Below, piece after piece: positions 619 to 13,396 of a stretch of DNA of 64,000 nucleotides. The position numbers were made by a program, and so were the translations under genes. The notes under the pieces were generated by a model, which saw only the letters and a program-made list of their open reading frames with translations, ran no database searches and had not been told where the DNA came from. Source of the DNA: Candidatus Micrarchaeia archaeon (GTDB taxonomy: Archaea > Micrarchaeota > Micrarchaeia > Burarchaeales > JACRGF01); contig JAWCPB010000002.1 of the NCBI GenBank assembly GCA_038870455.1, positions 2,247 to 66,246 of the forward strand, given 5' to 3'. Positions within the stretch are counted from its first letter, which is position 1; each line of letters begins with the position of its first letter.

Positions 619-1179
619 CTACTTGTGGACCACCTTCAACAGGTCCGCTTTCGTGACGATGCCGATTACCTTCTCTTTCTTCACGATGAGCACAGCCGGA
701 GCATGGCGCAGCAGGGCGGACAGCACGGGCAGGGGCGTGGCCTCATCGACTCTCGGGGGCGGGTCGGCCATGACGTCGCCCACGCGCGACTTCGAGAGCA
801 GAGTCAGGTCGGCTCCCTCGCCCACCCTCTCGGTTATGACCGCCTCGCTGATCATCCCCACCACATTGTCTCCTTCGAGAACCGGCAGCTGGGAGATGTT
901 CAGCCTCTTCATCGTCCTCACCGCGTCGGCCACGCGGTCGCCCCTGCTCACCCCAACGACCTTGCCAGTCATGATGTCCTTGGCCAGCAGGGACTCCCTC
1001 TCCTCCATCCTCTCGAGCGCCTCGAAAATCTCCTTGGCCTTGCCGTACGATGGATCAACCTTCCCCGCCTCGATCTTTGCGATGAGGGACTGCGACACGT
1101 CGGCGAGCCTGGCGAGCTCGGTCTGCTTGAGCCCCAGCCTGACCCTCCAGCGCTTTATCTCTGCGAGCTCCGGGAGCAT
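619..1179 (-). CDS. HTH (XRE-type) plus tandem CBS-domain transcriptional regulator
   Basis: 186 aa. N-terminal helix-turn-helix (LKQTELARLADVSQSLIAKIEAG) is followed by two CBS-like repeats (DIMTGKVVGV..., VGDVMADPPP...VIGIVTKADLL). Divergent from the sulfur cluster across an AT-rich promoter island. Confidence 0.75.
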   Translation of the reverse strand: MLPELAEIKRWRVRLGLKQTELARLADVSQSLIAKIEAGKVDPSYGKAKEIFEALERMEERESLLAKDIMTGKVVGVSRGDRVADAVRTMKRLNISQLPVLEGDNVVGMISEAVITERVGEGADLTLLSKSRVGDVMADPPPRVDEATPLPVLSALLRHAPAVLIVKKEKVIGIVTKADLLKVVHK

Positions 1180-1278: not shown

Positions 1279-2058
1279 GTGGTTGCGGACATCGCGCTTG
1301 TGCTGACCGGCCTCCTGGTCGGCTTCCTTGTGGGCCTGACGAGCATAGGCACGGGCCTCGTGGGCACACCCACCCTCATCCTGCTTGGCGTGCCGCCGGC
1401 CGCGGCCGTCTCGGCCGAAATCATCCAGGGGACCGTGATGAAGGCGGTTGCCGTGATAAAGCATTGGCGCAGGGGGCGCGTTTTTCATTCCCTCGCGCTC
1501 AAGATGGTCGCGCTCGGCATTCCGGGCGCTGCCGCAGGCTCTTGGCTCTCCTCGCGGCTTGACGCCGCTGCCCTGTCGCAGGCGGTCGCGCTCATTCTCA
1601 TCGGCGTGTCGCTTCTCGTTGTTCTTGAGGCGTGGGCGAGCCGCAGGCAGGGCCCCTGCCGTGAGACCTTCCGCCCTCTCCTGAAAAACCGCGCTCTCAA
1701 CGATGCGCTCCTAGTCCTGCTGGGTGGCTGCGTGGGCTTTCTCTCGGGCCTCACGAGCATCGGCTCGGGCACCTTCATCGTCCTCCTCTTCCTGCTCTTC
1801 CTCCGCATCCCCACAGGCTGCTCTGTCGGCACCGCGACTTCGGCCGGCCTCCTCATCCTTTCAGCCGCCGCACTGTCGCATGCCTCGCTTGGTTCTGTTG
1901 ACCTTTCGCTCACCGCAAAGCTTCTCGCCGGCTCGCTTCCGGGCGTGTGGCTGGGCACCCATCTGCTGTCAAGAGCCCCGGCCCACCACATCCGCATAGC
2001 GATTGCCGCGCTCACGCTCGCGGGCGGGCTGAGGATTTTGACGGGTGTGCACCTTTAA
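1279..2058 (+). CDS. TauE/SafE (DUF81) family sulfite/sulfonate exporter-type membrane protein
   Basis: 259 aa with a GTG start. Two halves of multi-TM repeats carry the family-typical GFLVGLTSIGTG and GFLSGLTSIGSG glycine motifs. Confidence 0.7.
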   Translation: MVADIALVLTGLLVGFLVGLTSIGTGLVGTPTLILLGVPPAAAVSAEIIQGTVMKAVAVIKHWRRGRVFHSLALKMVALGIPGAAAGSWLSSRLDAAALSQAVALILIGVSLLVVLEAWASRRQGPCRETFRPLLKNRALNDALLVLLGGCVGFLSGLTSIGSGTFIVLLFLLFLRIPTGCSVGTATSAGLLILSAAALSHASLGSVDLSLTAKLLAGSLPGVWLGTHLLSRAPAHHIRIAIAALTLAGGLRILTGVHL

Positions 2059-2092: not shown

Positions 2093-2962
2093 GTGGGAGC
2101 TTTGAAGCCCTACTATCTGGCAAAACCCCCGGAGACCCCCCTCGCCCAGAGGCGCGCGCGAATGCTCTCGAGGGAGGAAGGCGAGCGGATTCTGGCGATG
2201 TCCCCGCGGGCCATCTCCGAGCTCTTGCGCAAGCCCGCTCCAGAGTACATTGATGCGGCCGTGCTCAAGCCATCGCGCAAGGGAGTTCGGCTGCTCGGCG
2301 AGATGGCGAGAAGCGAGGCGGAGGCCAGAGAGTTCCTCACCGCGCTCAGGGACATCGCGCTCACGAGCGAGGAGTTCGACGGAGTGGCCAGAAAGGAGCT
2401 CGCCAAAACCGCAGTCTCGCAAAACGCTGACCCGGAAGCCGCCAAGGCGGCCTTCATCCTCGCCGAGAGGGCCGGCCTTGCGATCGGCGAGCGCATCCGG
2501 CGAATTATCGTCGGCAGGCTCATCCTCACAGCCCCCACCACCATTCTCTCCGCAGCGCTTTCTGTCTTGGCTTTCGGCACAGCAGCGCTCGCTCTCGTGT
2601 TTGGGCGCATTTCAGACCTCATCGTCGCTCCGATTGCTGGCTTTTCAGGCTGGATCGCTCTCAAAGCCGCGCGCGCGGCCGGAAGCCGCTTTGCCGACAG
2701 CATCCGTATGGCATTAACTTTGGGAAAAAGGCTCGCCGGCTATGCTGCGGAGCTCAGAGATGCCGAGATCGCCGAGGTGCTGGAAAGCTCGGCTTGGGAG
2801 CGAGCCTTGCGCGAGGGCGTTCCGGCTACCCCCGCAGAGCTCAAAAAAGTGCTAGGGGACACCGAGCCCAAGACAGGAACGAATGCGCCGGACGCGGCCA
2901 GCGCGTTGGAGCTCACCGAGGAGGACATCGGCCGAGTCCTTAACAGAAAAAAGCGCGACTGA
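2093..2962 (+). CDS. Hypothetical protein with central hydrophobic segments
   Basis: 289-aa ORF with cluster-like codon usage and no recognisable motif. TM-like stretch [28 protein letters not shown]. Confidence 0.4.
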   Translation: MGALKPYYLAKPPETPLAQRRARMLSREEGERILAMSPRAISELLRKPAPEYIDAAVLKPSRKGVRLLGEMARSEAEAREFLTALRDIALTSEEFDGVARKELAKTAVSQNADPEAAKAAFILAERAGLAIGERIRRIIVGRLILTAPTTILSAALSVLAFGTAALALVFGRISDLIVAPIAGFSGWIALKAARAAGSRFADSIRMALTLGKRLAGYAAELRDAEIAEVLESSAWERALREGVPATPAELKKVLGDTEPKTGTNAPDAASALELTEEDIGRVLNRKKRD

Positions 2963-3044: not shown

Positions 3045-4301
3045 GTGTTTCTCATAGCCCGCTATAACCTCAAGTGCAGGGAGTGCGGAAAGGGGTATCC
3101 CGCGGCCGAGCGGACGGTTTGCGATGACTGCTTTGGCCCTGTCAAGGTGAATTTCGAGCTGGCCGAGGTGGGCAGGACCTTCACAAAGGAGAACATCGCC
3201 CGCCGCCCGCTCTCACTGTGGCGCTACTTCGAGCTGCTTCCTGTCGATGACAGGAGCCGCATCGTTGACCTTGGCGCTGGCTACACGCCGCTCATCCACG
3301 CGAAGAAGTTAGGGGATAAGCTTGGCCTCAGGAAGCTCTACATCAAGAACGACTCGGTGAACCCGACCTTTTCCTTCAAGGACAGGCCCGTGACGGTCGG
3401 CATCACCAAGGCCATTGAGTTCGGCAAGAAGGTCATCTCATGCGCCTCAACGGGAAACCTGGCGGCCGCCAGCGCGGCCCACGCCGCAAAAGCAGGCCTG
3501 CCGTGTTTTGTGTTCATCCCCGCCGACATCGAGCTCAACAAAATAGCCCAGATTTTCGCCTACGGCGCGCGCGTCATTGCAGTCAACGGCATCTACGATG
3601 TGGCGAACCGCCTCTCCAATGAGGCGGCTGACCGCTTCGGCTGGGCCGTGCTGAACGTGAACATCCGGCCTTATTACGCGGAGGGCGAGAAGACCATCGC
3701 GTTCGAAACGTGCGAGCAGCTGGGCTGGGAGCTGCCTGACGCAGTGGTAATCCCCATCGGCAGCGGCGGCCTGCTCTGCGAGGTGGAGAAGGCCTTCAGG
3801 GAGCTGCGGGAGCTGCGCCTTGTGGCGGACAAACCAGTTCGCTTCTACGGCGCGCAGGGCGAGGGCGCCGACGCAGTCATTCGGGCGGTCAAGAAGGGCG
3901 GGCCGGTCGTTCCCATCAAGAACCCCAGGACAATCGCAAAGAGCATAATGTTCGGCGCGCCCGGCGACGGCGAGCACGCGCTACGCATCATCAGGGAGAC
4001 GCGGGGAGGGGGCGAGAACCCGGATGACAAGGAGATTCTTGAGGGCATTCGCCTGCTCGCCCAGACCGAGGGCATTCTCACCGAGCCAGCGGGCGGCACA
4101 ACCATCGGCGCGCTGAAGAGGCTGGCCGAGGGAGGCGCGTTTGATGCGGGCGATGTCGTGGTCGCGTTCATCACGGGCAACGGCCTCAAGACGCAGGAGG
4201 CGATTCCGAAAGGAAAGGCATACAGGATCGAGCCGAGGATAGAAGAGGTCGAGAGGATACTGAGAAGGCTTGGGAGGGAGAGCCATGGCAAAGGGGATTA
4301 G
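3045..4301 (+). CDS. Threonine-synthase-like fold-type II PLP enzyme with N-terminal Cys4 zinc ribbon
   Basis: 418 aa. N-terminal CRECG...CDDCFG zinc ribbon. NPTFSFKDRPV PLP-lysine motif typical of ThrC. GSGG and GNL segments of the ThrC/CysK fold. Its 3' end overlaps the MoaD-like gene by 32 nt. Confidence 0.85.
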   Translation: MFLIARYNLKCRECGKGYPAAERTVCDDCFGPVKVNFELAEVGRTFTKENIARRPLSLWRYFELLPVDDRSRIVDLGAGYTPLIHAKKLGDKLGLRKLYIKNDSVNPTFSFKDRPVTVGITKAIEFGKKVISCASTGNLAAASAAHAAKAGLPCFVFIPADIELNKIAQIFAYGARVIAVNGIYDVANRLSNEAADRFGWAVLNVNIRPYYAEGEKTIAFETCEQLGWELPDAVVIPIGSGGLLCEVEKAFRELRELRLVADKPVRFYGAQGEGADAVIRAVKKGGPVVPIKNPRTIAKSIMFGAPGDGEHALRIIRETRGGGENPDDKEILEGIRLLAQTEGILTEPAGGTTIGALKRLAEGGAFDAGDVVVAFITGNGLKTQEAIPKGKAYRIEPRIEEVERILRRLGRESHGKGD

Positions 4302-4569
4302 GGTGAGATTCTCCAGCGCGCTCAAGCCGCAGACGGGCGAGGCCGAGACAACCCTGCCCAAGGCCGGCAGTGTCGGGGAGGTTCTCGCCCTGCTTGTCAA
4401 GAAGTACGGCGAGGGCTTCCAGAAGCGCGTTTTCGACGAAAGCGGGAGCGTGCGCAGGTTCATCAACATCTATGTCAACGGCGAAGACATCCGCTTCAAG
4501 AATGGTCTGGCCAGCAGGCTCAAGGCTGGCGACGAGGTGCTCATTCTCCCCGCAGTGAGCGGCGGGTGA
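4270..4569 (+). CDS. MoaD/ThiS-like ubiquitin-fold sulfur-carrier protein number 1 (C-terminal GG)
   Basis: 99 aa (about 94 from the second Met). Ends ...VLILPAVSGG followed by stop. The beta-grasp pattern (IRVRF..., FINIYVNGEDIRF) resembles MoaD/SAMP. Confidence 0.8.
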   Translation: MGGRAMAKGIRVRFSSALKPQTGEAETTLPKAGSVGEVLALLVKKYGEGFQKRVFDESGSVRRFINIYVNGEDIRFKNGLASRLKAGDEVLILPAVSGG

Positions 4570-4573
4570 GGTA

Positions 4574-5323
4574 TTGGAGCTAAGCGATTACGACCTCAAG
4601 AGGTACGACCGGCAGATGCGCATTCACGGCTGGGGTGAGGAGGGGCAGAAGAGAATAAAGGCCGCAAAGGTGGGCGTCATTGGCACGGGGGGGCTTGGCT
4701 CCCCCCTCACAACCTACCTCGCGGTGGCGGGCGTGGGCAAAATAATCGCGGCCGACCGCGATGTGGTTGAGCTGTCGAACCTGAACAGGCAGATACTACA
4801 CTGGGACAAGGACATCGGCAGGAAAAAGGCAGAGAGCGCTGCCGAAAAGCTCAAGCAGGTCAATCCCTCCATTGAGGTGGTCGTCGTCGGCGAGGATGTG
4901 ACCGCGGAGAACATCGATAGGATATTTGAGGGCGTCGATGTCGTTGTTGACGGGCTGGACAATTACCCAAGCCGTTTCGTGCTCAACGAGTTCGCCGTGC
5001 GCAAGCGCATTCCGTTCGTTCACGGCAGCGTGTGGGGCATGGAGGGACGCGTGACAACCGTGATCCCAGGCAAGTCGCCTTGCCTGCGGTGCATCGTGCC
5101 CGAGGCCCCGCCGCGCGAGGTTTTTCCAGTGCTCGGCACAATTCCGGCTCTCGTGGCTACCATTCAGGCTACAGAGGTGCTCAAGTGCATAACGAAAGTT
5201 GGCCTGCTACTGACGGGCAGGCTGCTCGTCTACAATGGCGAGCACATGACTTTCGACGAGATTCCCCTCGAGAGGGACCCGGATTGTCCGGTGTGCTCGG
5301 CCCTCTGGACGAGCGAGGGCTGA
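4574..5323 (+). CDS. E1-like ThiF/MoeB/HesA family adenylyltransferase number 1
   Basis: 249 aa. YDRQMRIHGWGEEGQKRIKAAKVGVIGTGGLGS nucleotide-binding start. CLRC...CPVC zinc motif. No rhodanese domain. TGA stop at 5321-5323 lies in the same frame as the downstream CysK. Confidence 0.85.
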   Translation: MELSDYDLKRYDRQMRIHGWGEEGQKRIKAAKVGVIGTGGLGSPLTTYLAVAGVGKIIAADRDVVELSNLNRQILHWDKDIGRKKAESAAEKLKQVNPSIEVVVVGEDVTAENIDRIFEGVDVVVDGLDNYPSRFVLNEFAVRKRIPFVHGSVWGMEGRVTTVIPGKSPCLRCIVPEAPPREVFPVLGTIPALVATIQATEVLKCITKVGLLLTGRLLVYNGEHMTFDEIPLERDPDCPVCSALWTSEG

Positions 5324-6262
5324 GGTGGTTCCACGGCAAGATACGAGAGCGTCCTTGAGGCGATTGGCGGCACGCCGCTCATTCGCCTCAACAGGATAAC
5401 CAAGGGCCTGAAGCCTGTCATCTATGGCAAGCTCGAAGCCCGTAATCCAGCCTACTCAGTCAAGGACCGCATCGCGCTCGCCATGATCGAGGCAGCCGAG
5501 AGGCAGGGCGTGCTCAAACGCGGCTCAATCATCGTTGAGCCCACGAGTGGCAACACGGGCATCGGCCTCGCCATGGTGTGCGCGGTCAAGGGCTATCGCC
5601 TAAAGCTCACCATGCCCGAGAGCATGAGCCTGGAAAGGCGTGCCCTGTTGCGCGCTTTCGGCGCCGAGCTCATCCTCACCCCTGCCAGCGAAGGCATGCG
5701 CGGCGCTGTGGCGGCTGCAGAGGAGCTTGCCAGACAAGACAGGCACGTGTTCATCCCGCAGCAGTTCAAGAACAAGGCCAACGTGGAGATCCACAGGAAG
5801 ACAACCGCAGAAGAGATATGGCGGGATACAGAAGGGAAAATCACTCACTTTGTGGCCGGCGTGGGCACGGGCGGCACCATCACCGGGGTCGGGCAGGTGC
5901 TGAAGAAACGAAAGCCTTCAGTGAAAATCTATGCTGTCGAGCCTGCAGCTTCGCCCGTGCTGTCAGGCGGCAAGCCGGGTCCTCATAAGATTCAGGGCAT
6001 CGGCGCCGGCTTTGTGCCGGACATTCTCGACAGGAGCATCACCGACAGGATCATCCAGGTCTCGAACGAGGACGCGTTCGCCACAGCAAGGAGGCTCATC
6101 AGGGAAGAGGGCCTCCTTGTAGGAATCTCGGCTGGCGCGAACACCTGGGCAGCCCTCCAGGCCGCGGTGGAGGCGGACAAGGGCGACGTTATCGTCGTAG
6201 TGCTGCCCGATACGGGCGAGAGGTATATAAGCACAGACCTCTTTGCCGAATACAGGGAATGA
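5324..6262 (+). CDS. cysK: Cysteine synthase (O-acetylserine sulfhydrylase, CysK type) number 1; start unresolved
   Basis: Near-colinear with E. coli CysK from [19 protein letters not shown] through [11 protein letters not shown] (PLP lysine), [10 protein letters not shown] and [10 protein letters not shown]. The first in-frame ATG (5483) would delete the catalytic lysine. No ATG/GTG/TTG lies between the upstream in-frame TGA (5321) and the conserved N-terminus. Confidence 0.8.
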
Positions 6263-6263
6263 C

Positions 6264-6809
6264 ATGGCGTTGGATTTCCTGAAAACGCTTCTCGAGGACT
6301 TCACCACCCCATTCAAGAGAGACCCAGCAGCCACCAATATCCTAGAAGTGGTTTTCCTCTACCCCGGCGTGCATGCGATCCTGCTCCACCGCATCGCCCA
6401 CAGGCTGTGGCTATGGCGCATACCATTCATCCCGCGCGCGCTCAGCCACCTCAACCGGTTTCTCACAGGCATCGAGATTCACCCCGGCGCGACCATAGGC
6501 AGGCGTTTTTTTATTGACCACGGTGCGGGCGTGGTCATAGGCGAGACGGCCGAAATAGGCGACGACTGCACCCTTTATCAGGGTGTGACGCTCGGCGGCA
6601 CGGGCCTGCAGAGGGGCAAGCGCCATCCAACAGTCGAAAAGGAGTGTGTCATAGGCGCCGGCGCCATTCTGCTGGGGCCCATCCGCATAGGTCATCACAG
6701 TCGCATTGGCGCGGGCAGCGTGGTCAACAAGTCCTTCCCGCCCTATTCAACAGTCGTTGGTGTGCCGGGACGTGCGGTGACCAAGAGCACCTTCATCTAC
6801 CAGATATAG
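6264..6809 (+). CDS. cysE: Serine O-acetyltransferase (short form)
   Basis: Left-handed beta-helix hexapeptide repeats ([41 protein letters not shown]...RHP) like CysE. ATG at 6264 sits 1 nt after the cysK stop. An alternative ATG lies at 6243. Confidence 0.8.
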
Positions 6810-6873: not shown

Positions 6874-8097
6874 ATGGCTGTTGGCATACTCCACGCGCAG
6901 GGACTCCTTGAGTTTGATGATCCCGCAAACGTCATATCCGGCCGAGCCGACAGGTCCGGAGTAATCCTCGCGGGGTTGGAGGCCAAACTGCGTGCTAAAG
7001 GTGTGGAAGTTATCCGCATTTCCAGTGAGAGCCTGAAAGGCGAATTCACCTCACCCCCGAACCTCTCCGTGCTCTACGTATTCCCGCTGTGCGCCAAGTA
7101 TTTTGAAGACCTGCCCAAAAAAGTTCGGACGAAGCTTGAGGAATGGGATGAGCGGGGCCTGCTCTTCAACCCGCTCGGAGCGCTTATCGCCCAAACAGAC
7201 AAGCGCGCCACGACCGAGGCATTCAAAAAGCACGGGGTTGCCATTCCGGAGACGCTCATCTCGTCAAACAGCAACGAGCTGGCTGCGTTCGTGAAAAATC
7301 ACCGCGTAGCAATCCTCAAGCCCACACACGGTGCTGGCGGCGGCAACATCCTCTTCCTGGTCTGGAAGGACGGGACGGTGTACGCCCGCGTGCCGCAGGA
7401 TGGCCGCATCGTCGAGCTGCCGTGTGAGTTCAAGCACTACACCACTCGCCATTCAAGACTTTACTCCGCGCACACCCACGATGGGCGTGTGCACATCCAT
7501 GGCGAGGTTGTTGTGCAGGAGGTCATCCAGCCGGAAGGGCGCTGGAACGAGAGCGTGCTCAAGGTGTATGTCGTGGATGGCAGGGCCGCTTTCGGGGTGG
7601 AACTCACGCGCAGCGCGAGCACCCCGGAAGAATCCATAATCACGTATGCGAACGCGGAACACAGGCTGGTGGATGTCAAATCGATCCCAAAAGAGGCCGT
7701 GGAGCTGGCCGTCAAGGCCGCCGCTGCGCTGGGCCTGCGCGCCTGCCTCGTTGATCTGATTAAAAAGAATGGGGGCTGGGTGGCGCTCGAGACCAACGGA
7801 GACAACATCTACACCATCCACGATAGGGGGTACCGTTTTGCGCAGGGTTTCAAACCAGAGTTTGATTTTGATGAGCATCTGGCCTCTGCGTTGGCCGCCC
7901 GCGACACTCTTTCGGACCGCAAGCGCGCTCCGGACAACCGCAGGGACAAGCACGTCTGCGCTCCTCTTCCCGTCAGCCCGGATCCGTTCGCGCGCGCCAA
8001 GGGCGTGACCCTCCCGCGCCCAGGCCAGGCAGGAGAGGGCCGGCAGCCTCTCTCGCTCGCCCAGGCTGGAAAGCCTAATAAAATCACGGTGAAATAA
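6874..8097 (+). CDS. ATP-grasp family ligase (RimK/GshB-like fold) with low-complexity C-terminal tail
   Basis: 407 aa. VAILKPTHGAGGGNILFLV glycine-rich ATP-binding loop. Overall N-domain, central-domain and C-domain layout of ATP-grasp enzymes. Pro/Arg-rich tail of about 80 aa. Confidence 0.6.
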   Translation: MAVGILHAQGLLEFDDPANVISGRADRSGVILAGLEAKLRAKGVEVIRISSESLKGEFTSPPNLSVLYVFPLCAKYFEDLPKKVRTKLEEWDERGLLFNPLGALIAQTDKRATTEAFKKHGVAIPETLISSNSNELAAFVKNHRVAILKPTHGAGGGNILFLVWKDGTVYARVPQDGRIVELPCEFKHYTTRHSRLYSAHTHDGRVHIHGEVVVQEVIQPEGRWNESVLKVYVVDGRAAFGVELTRSASTPEESIITYANAEHRLVDVKSIPKEAVELAVKAAAALGLRACLVDLIKKNGGWVALETNGDNIYTIHDRGYRFAQGFKPEFDFDEHLASALAARDTLSDRKRAPDNRRDKHVCAPLPVSPDPFARAKGVTLPRPGQAGEGRQPLSLAQAGKPNKITVK

Positions 8098-8105
8098 GCG
8101 GTTGT

Positions 8106-9011
8106 ATGGCAGGAAAAAAAAGGCCGGGAATCCTCTCCGCGATTGGAAACACGCCGCTGGTTGAGCTCGTCAAACTCAATCCCTCGCGCCCGCGCGTGCG
8201 CATCCTCCTCAAGCTCGAGGGCCACAACCCCACGGGAAGCCTCAAGGATCGCATAGCCCTCTACATGATTGAGAAGGCGGAGGAAAGGGGCGAGCTGACA
8301 AAGGGGAAAACTGTTCTAGAGGCCACGAGTGGCAACACGGGCATCGGCCTCGCCATGGTGTGCGCCGCCAAGGGCTATCCCTTCGTGGCGTGCATGAGCG
8401 AGAGGGAGAGCGCGGAGAGGAGGAAGATAATGAAGGCTTTCGGCGCAGAGATCATCCTCACGCCCGCAGAGCAGGGAACAGACGGAGCGATAAGGAGGGC
8501 GGACGAGCTGGCCGCCGCCCACCCGGAAAAATACTTCGTGCCGCGCCAGCACAGCAATCCGGACAACGCGCTCGCGCACTATGAGACGACGGGCCCAGAA
8601 ATCTGGGCACAGGCGAAGGGGGATGTCGATGTCTTCATCGCGGGCATCGGCACAACGGGCACGCTCATGGGTGTCGGCAGGTTCCTCAAGGAAAAGAACC
8701 CGCACGTGAAAGTCATCGGCGTGGAGCCGGCAGAGAAGCACAGGCTGTACGGCCTGCGCAACCTCACCGCCGCCATGGTGCCGCCCATCTTCAACCCCTC
8801 CCTGCTTGATGACAAGGTGCGCGTGGCCGATGAGCACGCCTACAGACTGACGAGAGAGCTCGCGCGCGCCGAAGGCGTATTCGCCGGAATCAGCACGGGC
8901 GCGGTCGTGTGGGCCGCCCTGGAGGCCGCGAAGTCGCTCGGCAGGGGCACGATAGTCGCGCTCTCGCCCGACAGGGGCGACAAGTACCTGAGCATCCCGG
9001 ATTTATTCTGA
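8106..9011 (+). CDS. cysK: Cysteine synthase (CysK/CysM type) number 2
   Basis: 301 aa. IGNTPLVEL...NPTGSLKDRIA (PLP lysine), [20 protein letters not shown]. Own ATG 8 nt after the ATP-grasp stop. Confidence 0.85.
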   Translation: MAGKKRPGILSAIGNTPLVELVKLNPSRPRVRILLKLEGHNPTGSLKDRIALYMIEKAEERGELTKGKTVLEATSGNTGIGLAMVCAAKGYPFVACMSERESAERRKIMKAFGAEIILTPAEQGTDGAIRRADELAAAHPEKYFVPRQHSNPDNALAHYETTGPEIWAQAKGDVDVFIAGIGTTGTLMGVGRFLKEKNPHVKVIGVEPAEKHRLYGLRNLTAAMVPPIFNPSLLDDKVRVADEHAYRLTRELARAEGVFAGISTGAVVWAALEAAKSLGRGTIVALSPDRGDKYLSIPDLF

Positions 9012-9039
9012 AACTATTCTTTTTTGAAATCCCTCTCGG

Positions 9040-9477
9040 GTGATGGCATTCGGCGCACGAAACAATCTTGTTGGGCCTGTGGGCGGAGCATTCTACGGGC
9101 CTGGAGGGAATCCGCACTGCCGCCCGCGCAACTGGTTTGGACTGGGCGACGGAGCCAAGCGCAGGCTTTCCAGCTGCGTGGGGCGCGTTGGAGAAAACGG
9201 CTTCTGTCTGAGGGCTACTGAGGTGTTTCGCGATGCCGCATTATCCGAGAGGGAGGAGATTTTGCACGGCGCGCTCGAGGCGCTCAGGAGGGAAAAGGAG
9301 GAAAACGGGCGTGTTCCCAGGGAGCTCTTGAAAAAAATCGTCAGGCTCATCGAAATAGACGCCTGGGCCGCGCGCCGCGTGCTGCAGGACTTCATCGGCG
9401 CGCTGAGGGCCGAGCGCAGCGAGGCCCTACCGCTCTTTGTCAAGCTCAAGGACTACTCAAACGCGAAGGCAACGTGA
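9040..9477 (+). CDS. Hypothetical protein (C-terminal half helical); start uncertain
   Basis: 145-aa ORF in the operon gap between cysK number 2 and MoaD number 2. No motif recognised. No JAMM signature. Confidence 0.3.
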   Translation: MMAFGARNNLVGPVGGAFYGPGGNPHCRPRNWFGLGDGAKRRLSSCVGRVGENGFCLRATEVFRDAALSEREEILHGALEALRREKEENGRVPRELLKKIVRLIEIDAWAARRVLQDFIGALRAERSEALPLFVKLKDYSNAKAT

Positions 9478-9487
9478 TATTCTTTTC

Positions 9488-9517
9488 GGAATAAAACTTA
9501 TAGGAAATTATTTATAT
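9488..9517 (+). promoter_or_regulatory. GGAATA box (9488-9493, in tttcggaataaaa) plus TATA-like attatttatat (9507-9517) upstream of MoaD number 2
   Basis: Same tttcggaata sequence as at 1211-1219. Lies in the AT-rich island 9478-9520. Confidence 0.45.
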
Positions 9518-9549
9518 GCGCACGACGGAATATCCTCGGGTGGTTTCCT

Positions 9550-9825
9550 TTGGTGAAGATAAGGTTCTCTTCAGCGATCGCCGCTGCGGTGAGGGGCGAG
9601 GCGGAGGCCACGCTGGACTTCGAGGGGGACGTCGCGGCGCTGCTCGCGCTTCTCTCCCAGAAGTACGGCGAGGGCTTTCAGAAGCGCATTCTCTCGGGCG
9701 GAAGGATAAACGGCTTCGTCAGCGTGTATCTCAACGGCGAGGACATCCGCTTTCTCAAGGACGTTCAGACCCGGGTGCGGAACGGCGACACGATATACAT
9801 CACTCCGGCCGTGTCGGGGGGCTGA
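9550..9825 (+). CDS. MoaD/ThiS-like sulfur-carrier protein number 2 (C-terminal GG)
   Basis: 91 aa with a TTG/GTG start. Ends ...IYITPAVSGG plus TGA. Paralogous to carrier number 1 (shared YGEGFQKR, NGEDIRF). Confidence 0.8.
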   Translation: MVKIRFSSAIAAAVRGEAEATLDFEGDVAALLALLSQKYGEGFQKRILSGGRINGFVSVYLNGEDIRFLKDVQTRVRNGDTIYITPAVSGG

Positions 9826-9830
9826 GCCCC

Positions 9831-10625
9831 GTGCCGCTGAGCCTGACCGAGCTCAAGCGCTACTCGCGCCAGCTCATCCTGCCGAACTTCGGCGCGAGAG
9901 AGCAGCGGAGGCTGAAGAACGCGAGGGTGGTCGTCACGGGAGCCGGCGGCATCGGCTGTCCCGTGCTGCTCAACCTCGCCGCCAGCGGCGTGGGAAGCAT
10001 AACAATCATAGACAGCGACAGCATTGACCTCACGAACTTGAACAGGCAGTTCCTCTTCACGCCAGCGGATGTGGGAAGGCCAAAGGCGGTGGTGGCCGCA
10101 GAGCGCATCCGCGCGTTCAATCCGGACATCGAGGTCAGGCCCGTTGTGAAGGTCATCGACTACTCCAACGCGTTCGACCTCCTCAAGGGCTTTGACGCAA
10201 TCATCGACGGCACGGACAACTTCGCCGCGCGCTATGCGATAAACGACGCCGCCGTGCTCAACAGGACCCCGCTGTTTCACGCCGCCGTTCTGCAGTACGA
10301 GGGACGCGTCTTCACCGTCATTCCCGGAAAGAGCGCCTGCCTGCGCTGCGCCTTCCCGGTCATCCCGCCAAAGGGAAGCATCCCCACCTGCAGGGAGGCG
10401 GGAGTTCTCGGAAGCGTCATAAGCGTGCTGGCAGGCATCCAGGCCACTGAGGCGATCAAGCACCTGGCCGGCCAGGGCGCGCGCCTGACCGACAGGATGC
10501 TGGTTTTCGACGGCAGGACCATGTCTTTCGACGAATTCCGCTTCAGGAGGAGGAGGGAGTGCAGCGCGTGCGGCCAAAAGGGCTTCACTTCCTCGCCGGT
10601 GTATCAAGAGGTTTGTGACATATGA
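9831..10625 (+). CDS. E1-like ThiF/MoeB adenylyltransferase number 2
   Basis: GTG at 9831, 5 nt after the MoaD number 2 stop. LKRYSRQLIL...ARVVVTGAGGIGC. CLRC...CSAC zinc motif. The ORF-track 5' extension (9516) is probably spurious. Confidence 0.8.
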   Translation: MPLSLTELKRYSRQLILPNFGAREQRRLKNARVVVTGAGGIGCPVLLNLAASGVGSITIIDSDSIDLTNLNRQFLFTPADVGRPKAVVAAERIRAFNPDIEVRPVVKVIDYSNAFDLLKGFDAIIDGTDNFAARYAINDAAVLNRTPLFHAAVLQYEGRVFTVIPGKSACLRCAFPVIPPKGSIPTCREAGVLGSVISVLAGIQATEAIKHLAGQGARLTDRMLVFDGRTMSFDEFRFRRRRECSACGQKGFTSSPVYQEVCDI

Positions 10626-10861
10626 AACAGATCCACGAGCTTGACCTGAGGGGCGAGAGGTGCCCTGACACCTTCACCTACACGAAGATTCGGGCGGAGG
10701 AGCTGCGGGAAGAGGGCAGGGCCGGCGACATCCTCAAGGTGATTGTCGACAACGAGCTCAGCGCCAGGGACGTTCCGGCGAGCATGCAGCTCGAGGGGCA
10801 CAGGGTGATAGAGGTCAGGAAGGCGAACGGGCTGTGGGAGCTTTTTTTCGAGATTAAATAG
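10622..10861 (+). CDS. TusA-like sulfurtransferase (CPxx motif)
   Basis: 79 aa. LDLRGERCPDTFTYTKIRAEEL matches the TusA/SirA LDxxGxxCP...K pattern. ATGA overlap with the E1 number 2 stop. Confidence 0.65.
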   Translation: MKQIHELDLRGERCPDTFTYTKIRAEELREEGRAGDILKVIVDNELSARDVPASMQLEGHRVIEVRKANGLWELFFEIK

Positions 10862-11911
10862 GTGGTTGAAATCAGGGAATGGGATGATGCTCTTGGCCTG
10901 ACCCCGCGGCTTGACTGCGGCCTGTGCGGGCTGGACTGCGGCGCGCTGGCCCGCAGGGCGCTCGCAGGAGCGAGCGAGTTCTCGGAGTGCATTCCCGCCA
11001 GGCAGAGCCCGCAGGCCGCGCCCGCGTTCGCAGAGCTGAGGCGAAAGCACTCGCCCTCGCGCCTGCCGGAGCCGAGGAAGGACGTGCTTGTCGTGCGCCC
11101 ATGCATCGATGTCGCGAACAGGGTGAGCGGCGAGGCGAACATCCGCCACTGGTCGCCATCCCCCTACCCGCCCTTTGACTCGGTGTATCTGGAGCATGCG
11201 TTGCGCACCAGCGGAGCCTTTGGCAACGTCAAGTACTCGCCCTCGCTTGGCATCGCAAACCTTCTGCTCAGCGAAGGGAGAGGAGTTGTCTTCTCCCGCT
11301 CCGGAAAAGCCATCGCGCGCGCCGCTTTCGACCTCAATGACTTGGAGAAAACATTCTCACTCGTTTCCCTGGTCTCCTGGCCCGCCGCGGTCTGCGGCGA
11401 ATGCGGTTCTCTCGCAATCGACTGCGCCATAGGCGCGTGCAACGCCTGCGGCGCCTGCCACGCCTCGCGCGTTCCCCCCTCCACAAACCTGCAGTCATCT
11501 GTACCGAGCCGCCGCGCCACCCCAGCCGTTTCCCTCCTCTCGCCCGCGGCGAATCACGCGATTGAAGGGATCGGAGCAGAGCCTGCACTCGAGAGTGCCG
11601 AGAAAAGAGCGTTCGCGCTGCTGCTCGAGGGCGATGCCGGCGCGCTGTTCCTCCTTGGGCTCGCCAAGCAGCTTCGCTTTCTCGCAGACGGGCTGGCCAG
11701 GGCAGGAGGGGGCCGGCAGCTGAAGAAAATCGCCAGGGAGGCCTGGGAGGCTCTCGAGACGGGGGATAAGAAAAAGGCGGAGCACGCTGCCGGAGATGCC
11801 GCGCGGGCTTTAGCCGAGCTCAAGCGCGGCTTTTCAGAAGGCGGGCAGGTTTGGGCCGCCAAGGCCGCAGGGGCATCGCTTAAAATAGCACGCGCTGCAA
11901 CAAAGCTCTGA
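10862..11911 (+). CDS. Cys-rich protein with two putative Fe-S-cluster (PF04060-like) domains
   Basis: 349 aa with a GTG start directly after the TusA stop. LDCGLCGLDCGALARRALAG and CGECGSLAIDCAIGACNACGAC resemble the CxxCGxxxCxxxA Fe-S domain of corrinoid/Fe-S proteins. The rest is uncharacterised. Confidence 0.5.
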   Translation: MVEIREWDDALGLTPRLDCGLCGLDCGALARRALAGASEFSECIPARQSPQAAPAFAELRRKHSPSRLPEPRKDVLVVRPCIDVANRVSGEANIRHWSPSPYPPFDSVYLEHALRTSGAFGNVKYSPSLGIANLLLSEGRGVVFSRSGKAIARAAFDLNDLEKTFSLVSLVSWPAAVCGECGSLAIDCAIGACNACGACHASRVPPSTNLQSSVPSRRATPAVSLLSPAANHAIEGIGAEPALESAEKRAFALLLEGDAGALFLLGLAKQLRFLADGLARAGGGRQLKKIAREAWEALETGDKKKAEHAAGDAARALAELKRGFSEGGQVWAAKAAGASLKIARAATKL

Positions 11912-11920
11912 GGTGCGCGA

Positions 11921-13396
11921 ATGGCGCTGCGCGTGCACAACACCCTATCCAAGAGGCTCGAGGAATTTGTTCCGGGCGAGCCGGGCTTGGTGCGCATGTA
12001 CGTGTGCGGCCTGACCCCATACGACAGATTCCACCTCGGCCACGCGCGTACTTACGTTGCCTTTGACATCATAAGGCGGTACCTCGAGTTCGTCGGCTAT
12101 CGCGTGCTGCACGTTCAAAACATCACTGACGTGGATGACAAGATACTCAACCGTGCAAGGGAGCGCAGCGAGGAGCCTCTGGCGATGGCGGAGCACTTCA
12201 GCAAGCTCGCCATGCAGGAGTCCGACCTCCTCGGCATACGGAGGGCGCACCACTATCCCAAGGTCAGCGAGCACATTCCAGAAATAATCTCCCTCGTCGA
12301 ACGCATTGCCAGCAAGGGCTTTGCCTACGAGACAGAGGACGGCGTGTATTTCGACGTCGAAAAATTCCCTGGCTATGGCAAGCTCAGCGGGCAAAAGCTT
12401 GATGAGATAAAAGCTGGCGCGCGCATCGCCGTGGATGAGAGGAAGAGGCACCCGGCTGACTTCGCGCTTTGGAAGAAGTGGAAGCCCGGCGAGGCGCTCG
12501 CCTGGGACTCGCCCTGGGGGCGGGGCAGGCCGGGCTGGCACATCGAATGCTCCGCCATGAGCGCGAAGTACCTCGGCCAGTCGTTCGACATCCACGGCGG
12601 GGGCAGCGACCTCATCTTTCCCCATCACGAGAACGAAATCGCCCAGAGCGAGGCGGCGAGCGGAAAACAGTTTGCGCGCTACTGGCTTCACACAGGCTGG
12701 CTGACCGTGAAGAAGCAGAAGATGGCAAAGTCGCTCAAGAACTTCATCACGGTGGAGGGGGCGCTGGCCAAGTGGGAGCCCGAGGTGCTGCGGCTGTTTT
12801 TCGCCTCCACACACTACCGCTCCCCGCTCGACTTCAACGAGGGCTCGCTTGAGGCCGCGCGCGCGGGCTTGGCCACGCTGCGCAGCGCGCTGTACAACGC
12901 CGCAGAGGCAAGGCCCTCGAGGGGCCGCCCGGCAAAGTGGCTCGAGGAGGCTGTTGCCAAGCACAGGGAGGCCTTTCTGGCGGCCATGGACAACGACTTC
13001 GACACCAGCACCGCGCTCGCCCACCTGTTCGAGATCGCCAAGCACATAAACACGTACATCAACGAGGGGAAAATCGACAGCCACGTGCTCGAGCACGCGG
13101 TCGCCGAGTACAAGAGCCTCGCGGGCATACTCGGCCTGCTCGAGAGCCTTCCCAGGAAAATAGCGAGTGAAGAGGATACCGCCCGGCTCAGGGTGCTTGC
13201 GGCCTCGCTGGGCGTGGACAGTGAAAAAGCAGAGCGCCTCGGCTTCACCGAGCTCATGTCGCTCGTGATCGCCGAGAGGGAGAAGGCGAGGAAGGCAAAG
13301 GACTTCGCGAGGGGCGACGAGATCAGAAAGGCGCTGCGCGGCCTCGGCATAGCCATCGAGGACACTCCAAGGGGAACGGTCTGGCGGTTTGCATGA
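11921..13396 (+). CDS. cysS: Cysteinyl-tRNA synthetase
   Basis: 491 aa. HLGHARTY (HIGH), KMAKSLKN (KMSKS), class I fold and C-terminal anticodon-binding helices. Confidence 0.9.
   Translation: MALRVHNTLSKRLEEFVPGEPGLVRMYVCGLTPYDRFHLGHARTYVAFDIIRRYLEFVGYRVLHVQNITDVDDKILNRARERSEEPLAMAEHFSKLAMQESDLLGIRRAHHYPKVSEHIPEIISLVERIASKGFAYETEDGVYFDVEKFPGYGKLSGQKLDEIKAGARIAVDERKRHPADFALWKKWKPGEALAWDSPWGRGRPGWHIECSAMSAKYLGQSFDIHGGGSDLIFPHHENEIAQSEAASGKQFARYWLHTGWLTVKKQKMAKSLKNFITVEGALAKWEPEVLRLFFASTHYRSPLDFNEGSLEAARAGLATLRSALYNAAEARPSRGRPAKWLEEAVAKHREAFLAAMDNDFDTSTALAHLFEIAKHINTYINEGKIDSHVLEHAVAEYKSLAGILGLLESLPRKIASEEDTARLRVLAASLGVDSEKAERLGFTELMSLVIAEREKARKAKDFARGDEIRKALRGLGIAIEDTPRGTVWRFA

Follow-up and report, generated by a model that had tools for sequence, protein, structure and literature searches.

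Within a 64,000-nucleotide (nt) stretch of DNA from a Candidatus Micrarchaeia archaeon, to which we refer as the window, sulfur-related genes run along the forward strand between 1.2 and 13.4 kb. Central to the present analysis are three consecutive genes of this run, which encode an enzyme of the threonine synthase (ThrC) fold, a small sulfur carrier that ends in Gly-Gly (GG), and an adenylyltransferase of the E1 type, here called E1a (Table 1). The closest homologues of the enzyme likewise carry the label Candidatus Micrarchaeia (89% and 56% identity), and genes of archaeal character (e.g. Cdc48, TruD and an MptA-type GTP cyclohydrolase) are found in the remainder of the window. Taken together, the genes at 3045-5323 probably represent, at a chance that we put at roughly three in four, an archaeal homocysteine route of the MetM/MetO type, in which O-phosphohomoserine would react with a carrier thiocarboxylate.

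A preliminary description of the locus had proposed a ThrC-like, pyridoxal phosphate (PLP)-dependent enzyme with an N-terminal four-cysteine (Cys4) ribbon, and this assignment is borne out by matches to the PALP family and to thrC models as well as by the CxxC...CxxC motif itself (C11, C14, C26 and C29; residues 11-29, nt 3075-3131). The Schiff-base lysine is K112 (nt 3378-3380), which lies within the PLP motif SFKDR. The AlphaFold2 model (predicted local distance difference test score 90.5) places beta strands at residues 7-11 and 32-37, which is consistent with a zinc ribbon ahead of the ThrC fold, and a Foldseek search with this model returned ThrCs as the top solved matches (34-38% identity, the best entry in the Protein Data Bank (PDB) being 2zsj at 38%). 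The GAGGTG context at the start of the gene is kept in two contigs (L001 and L002) that are syntenic with the window and 81-95% identical to it.

The GG-terminated sulfur carrier that had been proposed downstream is equally well supported, i.e. by its C-terminus (...PAVSGG) and by matches to ThiS, MoaD and SAMP1 (including the NCBIfam models SAMP1 and moaD_arch); its best PDB sequence match is Mycobacterium tuberculosis CysO (3dwg_C, 5.5e-16), the closest solved relative of this carrier. The preliminary description was also right in that the carrier gene overlaps the enzyme gene, but the length of 32 nt given there is most likely wrong: the overlap becomes 17 nt (4285-4301) because ATG 4285 displaces TTG 4270 as the carrier start. 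Judged from the nucleotide sequence, translation most likely begins at this ATG (MAKGIRVRF) and less likely at the TTG. The carriers of L001 and L002 begin at an ATG (MARAKGIRVRF) of which ATG 4285 is the equivalent in the window, a GGAGG motif sits 7 nt 5' of that codon, and both the ATG and the Shine-Dalgarno motif are kept in the two contigs. In distant relatives the enzyme and carrier genes lie 1-33 nt or more apart, so that it is the adjacency of the two genes that is conserved, and not their overlap.

E1a scores below the cutoff of all NCBIfam MoeB and UbaA models and reaches 216.9 bits against the MoeZ model (cutoff 647); at 249 amino acids it has no rhodanese domain. A deletion of six residues (around 5099-5135, residues ~176-187) removes its crossover-loop cysteine (PTCxEAGV), which is present in all 20 other aligned E1s, including the second E1 of the window; within this alignment the deletion is found in the window, L001 (5801-) and L002 (5556-) only.

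The genomic context of the enzyme was compared across GTDB species, each represented by one genome, and 80 loci with 47-56% identity to the enzyme were kept, spanning Nitrososphaerota, Bathyarchaeia, Hadesarchaea, Methanosarcinales, many cyanobacteria, Chloroflexota, Nitrospirota and Planctomycetota. A free open reading frame (ORF) for a GG-ending carrier lies just 3' of the enzyme gene at 60 of these 80 loci; at 11 more (Nitrososphaerota, mostly Nitrosopumilaceae, and one Hadesarchaea) the carrier and the E1 that follows it form a single in-frame fusion, and at two the GG carrier has a short tail. Four loci have no carrier and three stop at a contig edge, which leaves 77 that are testable, and in 73 of those 77 a carrier domain is encoded downstream of the enzyme gene. 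The same enzyme-carrier arrangement is repeated in four metagenome contexts (Micrarchaeia, Nitrososphaerota, Hecatella and Gugararchaeum), and in L003/L004 and L010 the enzyme, carrier and E1 genes have a TusA gene 3' of them.

The enzymes of these loci form a group of their own. On a neighbour-joining tree of the catalytic core (numpy distances, 100 bootstrap replicates) the carrier-linked clade, which includes the window enzyme, is monophyletic with a support of 100/100, and the canonical ThrCs group with 96/100. The enzyme is 49-58% identical to the members of the clade and 34-41% to the solved ThrCs; it falls in a separate clade and does not group tightly with bona fide threonine synthases that bear the ribbon and have no carrier neighbour, a placement that the preliminary description had named as fatal to its proposal. 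A canonical ThrC locus (L093) has no carrier neighbour, unlike the clade. Every named match to the clade is tagged "threonine synthase" by the source databases.

The separation extends to the active site, as read from an alignment of 130 sequences (121 clade members). At position 109 of the enzyme the clade has F, Y or L where canonical ThrC has Gly; at position 139 it has L, in STGNL, as opposed to T88 in STGNT (for canonical ThrC we use the Thermus thermophilus numbering throughout); positions 204-211 read NxNxRPYY, as opposed to N154-S155...R160; and position 240 is S, as opposed to N188. L139, N204, N206, R208 and Y211 are invariant in all 121 clade members, and S240 is present in 120. Thus the solved ThrCs (T. 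thermophilus 1UIM, Aquifex aeolicus 2ZSJ, Bacillus subtilis 6CGQ and M. tuberculosis 2D1F), which have the fold and the SFKDR motif in common with the enzyme, read G/STGNT/N-SVNPxR/GNAGN, whereas the clade reads [FYL]/STGNL/NxNxRPYY/xSGxL. They also lack the 55-residue N-terminal Cys4 ribbon, as their alignments begin only at query residues 54-60. The ThrC residues T88, S155, R160 and N188, which we take to hold the substrate/product phosphate in the T. thermophilus enzyme, correspond to L139, N206 (with a one-residue insertion), Y211 and S240. Work by Omi in 2003 and Murakawa in 2011 reportedly found that the retained phosphate steers the addition of water to C-beta in that ThrC. The substrate of canonical class I ThrC, O-phosphohomoserine, is presumably also that of the window enzyme. 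The clade signature (Cys4 ribbon; STGNL; NxNxRPYY; SG) offers a simple means to tell MetM-like proteins from ThrC.

The ribbon is a feature of the clade and yet is not tied to the carrier. An alignment of 40 homologues shows no variation at its four cysteines, which are present in 118 of the 121 clade members. Three cyanobacterial members (L050, from Microcystis novacekii, L074 and L040) lack at least one of them while keeping the signature and the downstream carrier; the ribbon positions read SGCT and SSCC in place of CCCC, and --CC in L040, the N-terminus of which is possibly miscalled. Conversely, the megaplasmids of Natrinema, Haloterrigena and Haloarcula (L090, L091 and L092) carry 'thrC' genes of ~419 amino acids with a CxxC...CPxH (CCCH-type) ribbon and a third active-site pattern (STGNA, NAAINPFQ, GDGCT), unlike both ThrC and the MetM-like clade; at these loci there is no carrier nearby and the neighbours are amidohydrolase, D-aminoacylase and LLM oxidoreductase genes. 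The suggestion that the ribbon recruits the carrier therefore finds no backing as a specific role, given that haloarchaea have a related ribbon without a carrier and Microcystis a carrier without the cysteines.

The link to methionine comes from a bacterial member of the clade and from the literature. Among the plasmid records, the chromosome of Nonomuraea gerenzanensis was found to encode a protein with 46% identity to the enzyme and with the Cys4 ribbon; immediately 5' of its gene lies an S-adenosylmethionine (SAM) riboswitch (RF00162, 68.7 bits) and 3' of it a GG carrier of 91 amino acids. The same chromosome has a second, canonical ThrC, which is 65% identical to M. tuberculosis ThrC and 34% to its own clade member. 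When a Streptomyces MetM was sought in the plasmid collection, the Nonomuraea record was the sole match. The MetM/MetO thiocarboxylate pathway was first described in Streptomyces albulus (Hasebe et al. 2024, Appl Environ Microbiol 90:e01247-24; via PMC12172450 and bioRxiv 10.1101/2024.10.14.618325); according to these sources, MetM is a ThrC homologue that converts O-phosphohomoserine and the MetO thiocarboxylate into homocysteine. A SAM riboswitch lies upstream of S. albulus metM (PMC12172450), and MetM is often misannotated as threonine synthase (GapMind 2026 preprint, bioRxiv 10.1101/2024.10.14.618325). S. albulus MetM shares 51.6% identity with a Microcystis protein whose gene has a metO-like neighbour (PMC12172450), and the Microcystis locus L050 falls inside the carrier-linked clade. 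The proposal of a ThrC-fold enzyme that is fed by a carrier thiocarboxylate, with homocysteine as the first option, is thereby supported by the carrier-linked clade, the riboswitch-controlled pair and the MetM homologue alike. The system is not new, as had been thought possible, since it was published in 2024; conceptually nothing is added to that description, and the window holds an archaeal member with lineage-specific twists.

The substrate, product, sulfur source and release step of the route would follow by analogy from the chemistry of S. albulus MetM/MetO and of CysM/CysO. E1a would adenylate the C-terminal Gly-Gly of the 94-residue carrier, and a sulfur donor, i.e. free sulfide or a TusA-type persulfide, would turn the resulting acyl-adenylate into a thiocarboxylate. 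The enzyme would bind O-phospho-L-homoserine and, by elimination of phosphate, form a PLP-bound vinylglycine-type intermediate, to which the carrier thiocarboxylate would be added at C-gamma, as opposed to the addition of water at C-beta by ThrC; homocysteine would result, either directly or once released from the carrier.

Measured against the S. albulus system, the likeness consists of a PLP enzyme homologous to ThrC and, 3' of it, a GG carrier of the ThiS/MoaD type; the S. albulus carrier is activated by a MoeZ-type E1 (adenylyltransferase plus rhodanese sulfurtransferase), a part for which E1a is the candidate in the window. The window differs in that its host is an archaeon, the carrier ends exactly at GG, a dedicated E1 without rhodanese domain (unlike MoeZ) and without the loop cysteine is encoded in the operon, and the genes overlap by 17 nt; furthermore, there is a divergent HTH-CBS regulator and no SAM riboswitch, and no Mec/JAMM hydrolase is encoded nearby. 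With the CysM/CysO/Mec+/MoeZ system of M. tuberculosis it would share the carrier thiocarboxylate as nucleophile, a fold-type II PLP enzyme and an O-phospho amino acid, but the window enzyme belongs to the ThrC branch and not to CysM/CysK, and it would perform a gamma-replacement and not a beta-replacement. A third system, HcyS/HcyF/HcyD/MetY of Wolinella succinogenes, was reportedly described by Krishnamoorthy and Begley in 2011 and is said to use a protein thiocarboxylate as sulfur donor for homocysteine, with a fold-type I MetY, O-acetylhomoserine and a carrier that needs proteolytic processing.

Several observations weigh against the homocysteine reading. The tie between the clade and S. 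albulus MetM is indirect, via intermediates and not via the MetM sequence itself. E1a, without rhodanese domain and without crossover-loop cysteine, leaves the sulfur donor ambiguous, and no JAB/JAMM (Mec-type) hydrolase was found by Pfam among the ~70 ORFs of the window, so that any release step is unaccounted for; such a gene could lie elsewhere in the genome, and Mec-type trimming would be unnecessary because the carrier already ends at GG. Furthermore, hom, thrB, metE/metH and a second thrC are all absent from the 64-kb window, and in vitro the clade member from Microcystis acts both as a threonine synthase on O-phosphohomoserine and as a threonine deaminase (PMC12172450). These two activities, and the lack of another thrC in the window, would also fit an enzyme that is a working ThrC, or a bifunctional ThrC/threonine deaminase, next to a carrier and E1 that serve another purpose, e.g. 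tRNA thiolation, molybdopterin synthesis or SAMPylation. The nearness of the fold to the solved ThrCs agrees with this, as does the score against the NCBIfam thrC model TIGR00260, which the enzyme passes (285.8 bits, cutoff 167.1), a generic model that cannot tell MetM from ThrC; against PRK08197 ('threonine synthase') it scores 292.9 bits, just under the cutoff of 303. We consider a threonine synthase unlikely all the same, given that an adjacency to the carrier at 73 of 77 loci over several phyla is hard to square with unrelated functions and that the residues presumed to hold the phosphate in ThrC are replaced clade-wide. The actinomycete member, moreover, is under a SAM riboswitch and not under threonine control, beside a canonical ThrC, and cyanobacteria also retain a second, canonical thrC (PMC12172450).

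A carrier-dependent synthase with another substrate or product, for instance one that makes cysteine from O-phosphoserine in the manner of CysM/CysO on a ThrC scaffold, would agree with the similarity of the carrier to CysO and with the abundance of cysteine genes in the cluster (cysK, cysE, cysM-like and cysS), and sequence cannot reveal substrate specificity. Such a role would be redundant, however, because 4 kb downstream the window also encodes a CysM-family enzyme that is equipped with a carrier, an E1 and a TusA of its own, and the clade is tied to SAM/methionine regulation and to MetM; we regard it as quite improbable. Hardly any weight can be given to a cysteate synthase or another sulfite-using enzyme linked to the TauE/SafE exporter, which the preliminary description had also considered. 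Cysteate synthase is indeed a ThrC homologue, its model TIGR03844 also aligns from the N-terminal region of the query, and a TauE gene lies ~1 kb upstream; yet the enzyme reaches just 59 of the 324.9 bits that the cutoff of TIGR03844 demands, over an alignment limited to residues 7-241, an unrelated gene that is conserved lies between TauE and the enzyme gene, and TauE itself is not conserved at this position, as detailed below. The MetM-type homocysteine synthase thus remains our preferred assignment. It would supply the missing homocysteine step in many archaea (Nitrososphaerota, Bathyarchaeia, Hadesarchaea and Micrarchaeia) and bacteria, and would remove a false second "thrC" from annotations, thereby altering metabolic reconstructions.

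Table 1. Genes and other features of the sulfur-related region, with positions in the window
Feature	Position	Strand	Evidence or remark
HTH_3 + CBS-pair transcription regulator	619-1179	-	Pfam CBS 7.1e-18, HTH_3 1.4e-11
TauE	1279-2058	+	Pfam 3.4e-43
289-amino-acid protein without family match	2093-2962	+	83% identity in relatives
TATA-like box TTTATTTAAA	3002-3011	+	read from sequence; ~35-40 nt 5' of GTG start
ThrC-like PLP enzyme (candidate MetM-like homocysteine synthase), 418 amino acids, GTG start	3045-4301	+	Pfam PALP 2.5e-71
MetO/CysO-like sulfur carrier, 94 amino acids, C-terminus ...PAVSGG then stop	4285-4569	+	Pfam ThiS 1.2e-14
E1-type adenylyltransferase E1a (ThiF/MoeB/UbaA family), 249 amino acids	4574-5323	+	Pfam ThiF 2e-75
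cysK	~5333-6262	+	
cysE	6243-6809	+	
ATP-grasp protein	6874-8097	+	weak glutathione-synthetase/RimK-like matches
CysM/CysK-family PLP enzyme, second carrier module	8106-9011	+	NCBIfam cysKM 376.6 bits
145-amino-acid ORF	9040-9477	+	no Pfam match
Second GG-terminated ThiS/MoaD-like carrier, 91 amino acids	9550-9825	+	Pfam ThiS 1.3e-9
Second E1 adenylyltransferase, 264 amino acids	9831-10625	+	Pfam ThiF 3.2e-83
TusA-family sulfurtransferase	10622-10861	+	Pfam TusA 1.3e-15
349-amino-acid cysteine-rich protein	10862-11911	+	weak Fe-S match
cysS	11921-13396	+	

The TauE gene does lie upstream of the enzyme gene, but not immediately so, as the ORF for the 289-residue protein lies in between. It is absent at this position in the syntenic contigs L001 and L002 and in all 93 loci that were examined (92 of which have a ThrC-like gene), and because the syntenic contigs lack it we regard it as recently gained or lost and as having no connection to the conserved operon. 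Closer to the enzyme gene, the TATA-like box TTTATTTAAA is a probable archaeal promoter of the operon, and its core TATTTAAAC is kept in L001 and L002.

The divergently transcribed regulator with HTH_3 and CBS domains is a candidate for the control of the operon. In relatives it is located directly 5' of a 284-amino-acid gene or of the enzyme gene, i.e. in L001 (2692-3252, reverse strand), L002, Hecatella L007 (5342-5914, reverse strand) and Candidatus Gugararchaeum L094 (9120-9701, reverse strand); in the latter it adjoins the gene for S-adenosylmethionine (AdoMet) decarboxylase. The other loci showed no such regulator. An Rfam scan of the window yielded no riboswitch and no other RNA family, and control by a SAM riboswitch of the actinomycete type is therefore not used here; the regulator could be its SAM-sensing protein counterpart.

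Downstream of cysE, the genes at 8106-11911, which are followed by cysS, resemble the CysM/CysO logic of M. tuberculosis. The second carrier is 51% identical to the first (BLASTP) and the second E1 44% identical to E1a, with the crossover-loop cysteine retained. For the CysM/CysK-like protein the PDB matches to CysM and CysK do not discriminate between the two (M. tuberculosis CysM, 248.9 bits), and on sequence grounds it is a candidate carrier-dependent cysteine synthase; the TusA protein is a possible persulfide donor to the carrier-adenylates. The 145-residue ORF between this enzyme and its carrier was considered as a Mec/JAMM hydrolase and ruled out, as it has neither a Pfam match nor an HxH motif. 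CysM-like genes near the MetM-like gene also occur in Bathyarchaeum L011 and Nitrospiraceae L085.

The presence of two modules allows for a more speculative view, namely, that two paralogous carrier/E1 pairs feed a MetM-like (homocysteine) and a CysM-like (cysteine) enzyme within a self-contained, stripped-down island that relies on direct loading by sulfide or TusA and on hydrolase-free release. We hold this only as a doubtful extension of the above. If true, the island would represent a mechanistically modified form of the thiocarboxylate pathways in a DPANN archaeon, a group commonly presumed to obtain its amino acids from a host, and the Cys4 ribbon might be a docking or sulfur-handling element. 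The gene content suggests a DPANN archaeon that is able to make its own sulfur amino acids.

Some further observations concern related loci and neighbouring genes. Carrier-E1 fusions (...PAVAGG-SELS...E1) occur directly 3' of the MetM-like gene at L010, L026, L053, L055-L057 and L060-L062, and further at L065, L070, L076, L081 and L087. A published fusion screen assigns the Thaumarchaeota MoaD-MoeB fusion to molybdopterin synthesis (PMC11237513); its position suggests a role in methionine biosynthesis. A cysH-thrC gene fusion is given for three Thermoplasmata assemblies (PMC11237513), which may again indicate that certain archaeal 'thrC' genes have a role in sulfur assimilation. On another Micrarchaeia contig (L003, 2176-5833; L004, 1-3454) genes for ATP sulfurylase, a ferredoxin and an APS-reductase-like FAD protein lie divergently from a MetM-like/carrier/E1/TusA operon, and these neighbours link the operon to sulfate assimilation.

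Within the window, the frame of cysK extends 5' of its first canonical start (ATG 5483), and the PLP-lysine motif SVKDR is encoded in that extension (5324-5483). No ATG, GTG or TTG occurs from the stop of E1a up to 5483; codon 5333-5335 is ACG in the window (TARYESV...) and ATG in L001 and L002 (MPRYDNV...). The 5' end of cysK could accordingly reflect a non-canonical start, a start-codon mutation (i.e. a pseudogene) or a sequencing error. The ATP-grasp gene between cysE and the cysM-like gene is conserved in L001 and L002.

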